Shown here piece after piece: positions 22,879 to 24,578 of a stretch of 64,000 bases of DNA. Location: sequence record PQ571307, one strand, 5' to 3'. The translations under genes and the position numbers were made by a program. How positions within the stretch are numbered: position 1 is the stretch's first letter; the number at the start of each line of letters is the position of its first letter. The DNA comes from Shigella phage SF1-1. Below the pieces are notes generated by a model. That model was not told the DNA's origin and made no database searches. It was given only the letters and a program-made list of their open reading frames with translations.

Positions 22879-23469
22879 ATGCATACCGAGAGAGACTTGC
22901 AACTCTTGTGGTGGGAAGTGATGCAGGAAATAAAAGAAGATTTTCCTGCTTACTACAACATGTTACGTGAAGCAGGATATAAAGCTTGTGTTAGAAACAA
23001 AGTGAATAACTTTTTCGGTTGGTGCAACTACCGAGATAAAATTGTTGTTGTAAATTGGCACTTGCATAAGAACTCCACAAGAGATATGATCGTGGATACA
23101 ATGAAGCACGAAATTGCTCATGCTATTGATGGTTGTATGGGTAAGTTTAGTAGGCACGGTGCTCATTGGCAAAAACTGGCAGCAGAATTAGGGGCTAATC
23201 CTAAAGCCACTTCCAAAGAGCCGTTGAACCACGAGTATAAATATGTTCTTGTTCTGGTAGATAGGTTTGCGACAAGATGTGTTAGAGGTTATAATCGTAA
23301 ACCTAATCGCATGTACCCAGGTAAGCAACCTAACATGTGGTTGAAATCAGATAAAGAAGGGACCGAAGGAAAATTATGGTTGTATAAATGGGACGATTGG
23401 GTTAAAGTAGCTAAAGAGTACGGTGTTTCACCATATATAAGAGATGCAGAAGAGGAGAATGAAGAATGA
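22879..23469 (+). CDS. SprT-like zinc metalloprotease domain protein
   Basis: HEIAHAIDG ... HGAHW motif pattern typical of SprT/Wss1-like metalloproteases. Confidence 0.6.
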   Translation: MHTERDLQLLWWEVMQEIKEDFPAYYNMLREAGYKACVRNKVNNFFGWCNYRDKIVVVNWHLHKNSTRDMIVDTMKHEIAHAIDGCMGKFSRHGAHWQKLAAELGANPKATSKEPLNHEYKYVLVLVDRFATRCVRGYNRKPNRMYPGKQPNMWLKSDKEGTEGKLWLYKWDDWVKVAKEYGVSPYIRDAEEENEE

Positions 23470-24578
23470 CAAGTCCATTTTTAAAAGCAGCTACTGGTAG
23501 TCAGAAGAAGCCTGAAATGAGCGTATTTGCTGCAACAACAGATGCAAGTAAATCTGTATTCGCTCCAAGCGTGTTAGATGCCAGTCCTGTTTATGCACCA
23601 GCGGCACCGCAAGAAGTTCCAGTTTTGCCTTCTATGACCCGACAAGAGATCGAAGAGATTGGGGCAGAGGCAGGAACAACCTTGCGTTCCTTGAATGCCG
23701 AGGTATTAAAACATCAACGTAGTAATCAAGGCGATCAGATGAGTGAACGACTCACAGCTTTGATTAAACAGGCAAAACAACTTGATCCAAACTCTATTAA
23801 ACAAAGCAAGGGTATTACTAAACTCATTAAAAAAGTTATGGGTATGAAAGAAGATCTGTTTGGGGAGTTTGATAATGTTAATAACCGTATTGAAGAGTTG
23901 GTAAAGAATCTTCAAATGGATATTCGCAAAGAAGAAGATTCCTTGGTATATCTTGAAAAGCTACATCAAGCTATTGGACAATATGCTGCAAGTTTGAACC
24001 GAGATATGCAGCTTCTAACAGCAACCTATGAAAAAGAAGAACAAGCTTTGGCTGCTCTTCCAGAAGATGCAGTAGAACAGCGACAAGTGATCCGAGATAC
24101 TTTGGATCTTCTGGAGATTCGTATTGCAGATTTAAAAGCATTGCGCCTACTGTGTGTCCAAATGGGACCGCGTGTACAAGGTATGCAAAAAGTTTCTGCA
24201 AGCTTAATGCGATCTGCGCGTAACATAGTAAATAATGTTATTCCCGCTTACTCTGCTAACTTCTCCATGTATATCGAGAGCTTACGTCAAATGAAAGCAG
24301 CAGAGACGCAGAATAACGTTCTTGATGAATTTAACCTGGCAATTAAACTGGGTAGCGATCTTGCCACACAGAATCAGATCGAAGCAGCAGCACTGGCTAA
24401 CCGTCAAGTGTTGGATATTGAAACTCTGCGTCACGATCAGGAAAACTTGGTTAAGATGTTGGAAGAAACTAACCGCATCAATACGGAAGCCCGTGCTGCT
24501 CGTGTTGATTATATTAATGAAGTTCAATCTCTGGAAGACGGGATGGTAGCTGCTGTGAAACGAGGGCTTGGTAAATGA
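23466..24578 (+). CDS. coiled-coil protein, possible TelA-like (toxic anion resistance family)
   Basis: 370 aa, largely helical with Q/E/L-rich heptad-like stretches; family call from size, composition and Ter-gene context only. Confidence 0.3.
   Translation: MTSPFLKAATGSQKKPEMSVFAATTDASKSVFAPSVLDASPVYAPAAPQEVPVLPSMTRQEIEEIGAEAGTTLRSLNAEVLKHQRSNQGDQMSERLTALIKQAKQLDPNSIKQSKGITKLIKKVMGMKEDLFGEFDNVNNRIEELVKNLQMDIRKEEDSLVYLEKLHQAIGQYAASLNRDMQLLTATYEKEEQALAALPEDAVEQRQVIRDTLDLLEIRIADLKALRLLCVQMGPRVQGMQKVSASLMRSARNIVNNVIPAYSANFSMYIESLRQMKAAETQNNVLDEFNLAIKLGSDLATQNQIEAAALANRQVLDIETLRHDQENLVKMLEETNRINTEARAARVDYINEVQSLEDGMVAAVKRGLGK

Follow-up and report, generated by a model that had tools for sequence, protein, structure and literature searches.

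A SprT-like metalloprotease gene beside TelA in the Ter-type island of a phAPEC8-like Shigella phage

The stretch of 64,000 nucleotides (nt) analysed from Shigella phage SF1-1 (sequence record PQ571307), called here the window, contains on its + strand an open reading frame (ORF) for a SprT-like zinc metalloprotease of 196 amino acids (aa) (22879-23469, ATG start), which is followed directly by a TelA-family gene (23466-24578, +, ATG start, 370 aa) inside a Ter-type gene island. Does such a protease work with the Ter genes that surround it, or does it serve another process of the phage? A first-pass annotation of this DNA, whose range 22879-24578 spans the protease and TelA genes together, recognized the zinc protease and took its overlap with TelA to imply coupled expression in the island. 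The recognition is correct and concerns an ordinary, already annotated gene, while the adjacency was over-read. The reading preferred here is that of a small stand-alone SprT-like protease, made early, which would act on DNA-bound proteins and would be a passenger among the Ter genes; taken as a whole, it has about an even chance of being right. This reading and its alternatives overlap, so the degrees of confidence attached to them are not meant to add up to certainty.

The protein is a SprT-family zincin. It matches the Pfam SprT-like family PF10263 with 35.6 bits (E 9e-9), above the gathering cut-off of 25.6, over residues 31-107, which align with positions 18-98 of the 108 positions of the profile, and phrog_6445 matches it from end to end (E 9.6e-63). 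A search of the Protein Data Bank (PDB) with the single sequence gives a marginal match to HtpX alone (E 0.64), and a profile search is required to reach the structural relatives: the profile of 34 diverse relatives matches the sequence of the SPRTN chain 6mdx_A with E 9.4e-7. The AlphaFold2 model, built from six homologues, has a mean pLDDT of 83, and the human SPRTN SprT domain (6mdx and 6mdw, E 3e-4) is the top PDB match of this model in Foldseek. The HExxH motif lies within a SprT-like fold, and the earlier description of a SprT-type zinc protease with HEIAH and HGAHW motifs is borne out by family, profile and fold.

The protease core, which is formed approximately by residues 34-110 (22978-23208, +), has three strands followed by the active-site helices. 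The HEIAH motif (His77-Glu78-Ile-Ala-His81; 23107-23121, +) provides two predicted zinc ligands and the catalytic glutamate, and the HGAHW motif (residues 93-97; 23155-23169, +) provides the third ligand. In the alignment of the 34 relatives, which have 21-64% identity to the query, H77, E78, A80, H81, H93, W97 and G105 are invariant, so the HExxH...H triad proposed in the first pass is conserved. H93 and W97 are invariant and H96 varies; therefore the third ligand is H93, not H96, and H93 aligns in the profile comparison with the histidine of the SPRTN motif GHGPEF. The predicted zinc ligands are thus H77, H81 and H93, with the catalytic glutamate retained, and the protein is very probably an active SprT-like metalloprotease, as judged from its sequence. 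A putative Shine-Dalgarno-like AAGGTG (22867-22872, +) is found 6 nt 5' of the protease ATG, and the TAA stop of the upstream gene is at 22873-22875. Minus-strand ORFs of 66-128 aa within 22879-24578 lie inside two strongly supported + genes and are regarded as spurious.

The core is followed by a family-specific basic C-terminal domain (residues 119-182; 23233-23424, +), built by strands and one helix, which is aromatic-rich and has a pI of 9.6 and 14 lysine and arginine residues. Its conserved residues are Y122, Y138, R140, K141, P142, K159, T162, K165 and L166, and it is kept across the family: many of the best 150 of the 2,947 cluster representatives found by profile search align up to profile positions ~170-180. 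The domain holds one cysteine and no histidine, and many relatives have neither; therefore it cannot hold a structural zinc. A SPRTN-type zinc-binding sub-domain is not found after the catalytic core, as the zinc ligands are absent and the C-terminal domain, modelled in isolation, has no structural relative in the PDB. Homology between this domain and the zinc sub-domain of SPRTN is unproven, the profile alignment entering the region at low confidence only, and the likeness between the two appears to be one of position only. The SPRTN protease is activated when the sub-domain at the equivalent position binds DNA (PMC9240642), and the basic C-terminal domain of the phage protein may bind DNA as well. 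The protein ends in an acidic disordered tail (...RDAEEENEE; 23425-23466, +), with a pI of 4.1 and pLDDT below 50 at residues 189-196, which is not conserved among the relatives compared.

The family is not rare in phages, and the first-pass claim that such proteases are uncommon in phage early regions has to be given up. Relatives are detected by tblastn in 352 phage records, which include T4-like phages of Klebsiella, Enterobacter, Citrobacter, Cronobacter and Vibrio and Streptomyces phages in which the gene is annotated as a SprT-like protease, and eight PHROG families match the protease, among them phrog_6445, phrog_3768 and phrog_1006. A word-indexed homologue search gives 5 relatives only, and the profile had to be run exhaustively against 1.84 billion cluster representatives: 2,947 of them match at E ≤1e-3 and 226 at E ≤1e-10, mostly proteins of 150-200 aa. 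Some jumbo phages carry one to three SprT-like peptidases, which are proposed to target host proteins (Iyer et al. 2021, PMC7824862). No study on the function of any phage SprT-like protease was found in the literature. What is worth keeping from the locus is this widespread phage subfamily with a conserved, zinc-free, basic C-terminal domain and no solved relative, which is repeatedly encoded beside topoisomerase II genes or joined to SNF2 helicases in one protein.

The Ter-type island around the protease is real, with all of its genes on the + strand, and its TelA, TerC, vWA-TerF, TerD and PRTase_3 genes all score above the Pfam cut-offs. The downstream neighbour is a genuine TelA gene (PF05816, 115.7 bits and a cut-off of 30; phrog_5890, E 2.5e-139), and the first-pass placement of the protease immediately 5' of it within the island agrees with the coordinates and the Pfam matches. 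The junction sequence GAAGAATGACAAG shows a true 4-base ATGA overlap (23466-23469, +), in which the TGA stop of the protease is at 23467-23469 and the ATG of TelA at 23466-23468. A candidate Shine-Dalgarno sequence for TelA, GAGGAG (23452-23457, +), lies within the coding region of the acidic tail of the protease, 8 nt 5' of the TelA ATG. These features would suit a Ter accessory protein, translationally coupled to TelA, which would activate or regulate a membrane-stress or superinfection-exclusion system by processing either another Ter protein or TelA, for example within the disordered stretch of 55 residues at the N-terminus of TelA. According to Iyer et al. 2021 (PMC7824862), the Ter systems of phages probably serve as defences against superinfection or xenobiotics. 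The order of protease and TelA is also kept in close, fully syntenic relatives whose proteases are 93%, 65% and 46-47% identical to that of the window, and both genes lie 3' of a terminator-like hairpin that follows TerC. Such an accessory role is nevertheless improbable. Overlaps of 4 bases are found at 11 of the 85 same-strand gene junctions in the window, and, because they are generic, the overlap is not specific evidence; in the relative L003 a 9-base gap stands in its place.

Comparison across independent lineages also weighs against a tie between protease and Ter genes. From the side of the protease, 80 viral and 80 bacterial loci carrying relatives were compared, and Ter genes adjoin the protease only in the close syntenic relatives. 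No Ter gene is found within 5 kb of the family member in the 77 other viral loci or in the 80 bacterial loci (0 of 157), and the 141 neighbour proteins from 51 distinct clusters give no Ter-family match in Pfam. From the side of TelA, the comparison covered phi92, CcrBL9, phiPsa374, PBECO4 and RaK2. The island of phi92 (Justusliebigvirus) has the same order of HAD, PRTase, Macro, TerC, TelA, vWA-TerF and TerD genes, and its TelA is 78.5% identical to that of the window in an alignment of residues 1-368, which includes the N-terminal region; phi92 has no SprT-like ORF, even at E ≤10. CcrBL9, phiPsa374, PBECO4 and RaK2, which are four independent TelA-bearing phages, have no SprT-like gene within 6 kb of TelA. 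Co-occurrence with Ter genes in independent lineages is thus not seen, and a conserved SprT-TelA module is rejected from both sides. A 'putative peptidase' of RaK2 was considered as an independent TelA-peptidase pair and discarded, as Pfam identifies it as a Rv2179c-like 3'-5' exoribonuclease and it gives no match to the SprT profile. This gene is located just 3' of TelA in RaK2 (L093 7044-7724) and in PBECO4 (L092 7157-7846), where it is annotated as an exoribonuclease.

The protease also diverges faster than the Ter genes in the syntenic phages. In L003 it is 46% identical to that of the window, versus 66-81% for the Ter genes, and in L004 it is 65% identical, versus 77-83% for TelA, TerD and vWA-TerF and 71% for TerC. 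Between TerC and the protease is a variable segment (21296-22875, +) of small, poorly conserved ORFs, which have 27-63% identity to the syntenic relatives versus 66-86% for the Ter genes and match no Pfam families. Judged from these comparisons, the protease looks like an accessory, variable passenger in a variable segment of the island and not a component of the Ter machinery. Gene turnover is concentrated around the protease-TelA junction. In phi92 (L009), a 289-aa hypothetical protein, gp179, is encoded at 6063-6932, and a gap of 68 bases separates it from TelA (7001-8104); gp179 stands where the window has a 197-aa ORF (22282-22875) followed by the protease, and this ORF shares just 41% identity with a part of gp179.

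The first-pass idea that the overlap implies coupled expression in the Ter island is weak: the overlap is real and the protease is likely co-transcribed with TelA, but junctions of this type are generic in the genome. A functional partnership finds no support in the comparisons, and adjacency with a 4-base overlap should not be taken as a SprT-TelA functional module. The GC-rich hairpin AGCCTCC-TTCG-GGAGGCT with its T-rich run (21260-21277, +), found by a consensus scan 7 bases after the TerC stop, is the sole convincing terminator-like site in the Ter island and possibly marks the upstream limit of the protease-TelA transcription unit; it is only a lead, because regional terminator counts do not exceed chance. 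The promoter scan gives 48 matches, versus 40.8 ± 6.1 in shuffled sequence, which is not above chance, and no promoter is claimed; Rfam finds no family over the whole window.

The protease lies in a + strand block that combines Ter genes with genes for replication and nucleotide metabolism, among them those of a UvrD-type helicase, an anaerobic ribonucleotide reductase, a DnaB-type helicase-primase and a DNA polymerase. The DNA context recurs among its relatives. In the T4-like phages KP15 (Klebsiella; L008 3854-4462) and Miller (Citrobacter; L174 3414-3956), the homologue comes right after the genes of the topoisomerase II large subunit and gp52 and precedes rIIA and rIIB. Topoisomerase II forms covalent DNA-protein intermediates, and a protease beside it is a suggestive pairing. 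In at least 7 viral loci the SprT-like core is fused to a SNF2 helicase according to Pfam. These fusions, on viral contigs, include L051 2003-4213, L056 4914-6932, L062 4902-7052, L064 4869-8033 and L081 4920-7007, and in these proteins, which are 670-1,054 aa long, a SprT-like core at the N-terminus is followed by SNF2-family and Helicase_C domains, with an additional LAGLIDADG-type insertion in L064. SprT-like ORFs of ~700-736 aa with the same N-terminal match occur in L053, L079, L082, L084 and L088, which lie outside the Pfam scan. The closest relative outside synteny, in L012 (42% identity over the full length), adjoins a Pif1-like helicase gene and a Lar-like gene.

Because of the topoisomerase II adjacency, the SNF2 fusions, the Pif1-like helicase of L012, the basic C-terminal domain and the SPRTN precedent, a DNA-associated role is favoured. 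In the mechanism proposed, His77, His81 and His93 would hold the catalytic zinc and Glu78 would activate the water molecule, while the C-terminal domain follows the core where SPRTN has its DNA-binding zinc sub-domain. The protease would be made early in infection and would cleave proteins bound to DNA or trapped on it, possibly in a DNA-dependent way. In one version it would free replicating phage DNA of trapped or crosslinked proteins, and in another it would degrade host DNA-bound factors. That its substrates are DNA-associated is a proposal whose chances fall a little short of even. Several observations weigh against the preferred reading. Only two genera, both T4-like and related to each other, show the topoisomerase adjacency, and the SNF2 fusions do not have the C-terminal domain. 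The neighbours of family members are mostly small genes of early type without annotation, and no partner is conserved among them, which fits a host-takeover role too. The adjacency to TelA, kept down to 46% identity, may reflect a local functional tie within this lineage.

The main rival is a host-takeover or anti-defence role, in which the protease would cleave one or a few specific host proteins early in infection, such as a regulator or a factor of defence or restriction, DNA would not be required and the position beside TelA would be incidental. The distribution of the gene is patchy, as it is present in Phapecoctavirus and absent from the sister genus of phi92, and its fast divergence relative to its neighbours points in the same direction. 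So does the placement of relatives among small early genes, beside Alt and Alc in ValKK3 and near the Lar-like restriction-alleviation gene in L012, and the host-directed function put forward for jumbo-phage SprT-like peptidases is the same proposal (Iyer et al. 2021, PMC7824862). The conserved basic C-terminal domain and the associations with SNF2 and topoisomerase, however, indicate DNA and not a soluble target. The protease activity of ArdC from plasmid R388, whose metalloprotease domain is PDB 6SNA, is dispensable for anti-restriction, which also weighs against this role. Among the PADLOC-DB defence models, none matches the protease, TelA, TerC, TerD or vWA-TerF at E ≤0.01. The host-takeover or anti-defence role is rated as somewhat unlikely, and this explanation overlaps with the preferred one if the target is DNA-bound.

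The preferred reading also has to be distinguished from that of a classical repair orthologue, a phage SPRTN or Wss1 that would remove covalent DNA-protein crosslinks, such as trapped topoisomerase II, for replication. SPRTN is indeed the closest solved structure, the T4-type relatives are encoded right after the topoisomerase II subunit genes and the gene lies within the replication module of the phage. Strict orthology of this kind nevertheless seems very unlikely. In the near-identical phage SKA64, the annotation shows no topoisomerase within 12 kb of the gene; the search did not extend to the remainder of the genome. The zinc sub-domain, the basic region and the PCNA-, ubiquitin- and p97-binding motifs of SPRTN are absent or undetectable, and against the E. 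coli SprT equivalog model NF003421 the protease reaches 20.8 bits, where 175 are required.

A broader proposal is that the phage family constitutes a DNA-scaffolded type of viral protease whose task is to remove proteins trapped on or crosslinked to DNA, such as cleavage complexes of phage topoisomerase II or DNA-bound defence factors of the host. This generalization is rather doubtful. If true, the family would be the first virus-encoded counterpart of SPRTN and Wss1, and in this phage it would act with the replication genes and not with the Ter genes. If its members are DNA-dependent, the family would offer a simple phage model for the proteolytic removal of proteins from DNA and would explain the recurrent pairing with topoisomerase II and SNF2 helicases. 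As it stands, the locus has little significance, as the gene is 98-99% identical to deposited genes, several of which are annotated as SprT-like.

Dozens of Phapecoctavirus genomes, such as phAPEC8, ukendt, ESCO37 and SKA64, match the 2.5-kb stretch with the protease and TelA genes at 98.6-99.4% identity, and the window is that of a phAPEC8-like Phapecoctavirus. In the GenBank records of SKA64, EF1-1 and P3322 the same gene is annotated as 'SprT-like domain-containing protein' or 'SprT-like family protein', and TelA carries its name in most of these near-identical records. Public annotation and the literature thus already cover the protease gene, the family to which it belongs and the Ter island. 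Five phage records whose listed hosts are Campylobacter, Acinetobacter, Pseudomonas and Klebsiella (MG065650.1, MG065645.1, OP562383.1, OR584014.1 and MH252123.1) hardly differ in this region from E. coli phages: they have 90-99% identity to phapecoctaviruses or, in the case of MG065645.1, are equally close to phi92-type phages; their host labels look like mis-assignments or contaminant isolations.

The other genes of the island, all on the + strand, are those of a HAD hydrolase (17979-18656), PRTase_3 (18649-19476; Pfam 142.5 bits), Macro (19424-19963; Pfam), TerC (20279-21253; 138.3 bits), vWA-TerF (25980-26774; 130.1 bits) and TerD (27285-27887; 98.9 bits). The HAD, ComF-like PRTase and Macro genes (17979-19963) stand directly 5' of TerC, and this set fits the 'nucleoside-like metabolite' arm of Ter systems described in bacteria and in the Acinetobacter phage ME3. 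In the ORF list the Macro frame shares 53 bases with the PRTase gene, so the later ATG that SKA64 uses is probably the real start of the Macro gene. In the variable segment, the ORF 21755-22267 (+) encodes a lipoprotein-like signal, MKKLALILIGCIFLTAC, followed by a low-complexity basic tail rich in Gly, Ser and Asn, and a signal peptide is annotated in gp180, the corresponding protein of phi92. Two paralogous small ORFs (25634-25978 and 27000-27269, +; 33% identity over 89 aa, E 6e-13), which lack a family assignment, are located directly 5' of vWA-TerF (25980) and TerD (27285), respectively, and may encode paired partners of these two proteins.

A further similarity was observed with a structural entry. 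Chain c2 of PDB 6ncl (also 8h2i), a 181-aa protein named P4, matches the phage SprT-like profile with E 0.0077, and its HELAHG...ESSHSDEWK aligns with the catalytic motif of the profile. The entry 6ncl is presumably the capsid of chlorella virus PBCV-1; if so, a zincin-like protein would be built into a giant-virus capsid.

Among the known systems, SPRTN (PDB 6MDX and 6MDW) shares 16-19% identity with the phage protein and differs from it in its architecture. It has a zinc-binding sub-domain, where the phage C-terminal domain has no zinc ligands, and it has a basic region and PCNA-, ubiquitin- and p97-binding modules that are not in the phage protein, which with 196 aa is far shorter than SPRTN, whose crystallised SprT domain alone comprises residues 26-214. 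E. coli SprT (YggI; NCBIfam NF003421) belongs to the same Pfam family and gives a weak match over residues 55-134, with a score far below that of an orthologue. Bacterial SprT ends in a zinc ribbon, which the phage protein does not have. Yeast Wss1, which has a WLM domain, and the archaeal minigluzincins selecase, jannalysin and abylysin do not have the C-terminal domain of the phage family, and no sequence similarity to the phage profile is detected in them beyond the motif (E >0.02); minigluzincins are soluble proteases of ~110 aa whose third ligand is arranged differently from that of the phage protein. The other phage SprT-like proteins (phrog_6445, phrog_3768, phrog_1006 and those of Streptomyces and jumbo phages) belong to the same family and have the same two-domain layout in 150-200 aa; the T4-like homologues match residues 38-168 of the protease. 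The adjacency to TelA is found only in the phAPEC8-type lineage, whereas in other phages the family is associated with topoisomerase II, Alt and Alc, a Pif1-like helicase or a SNF2 fusion.

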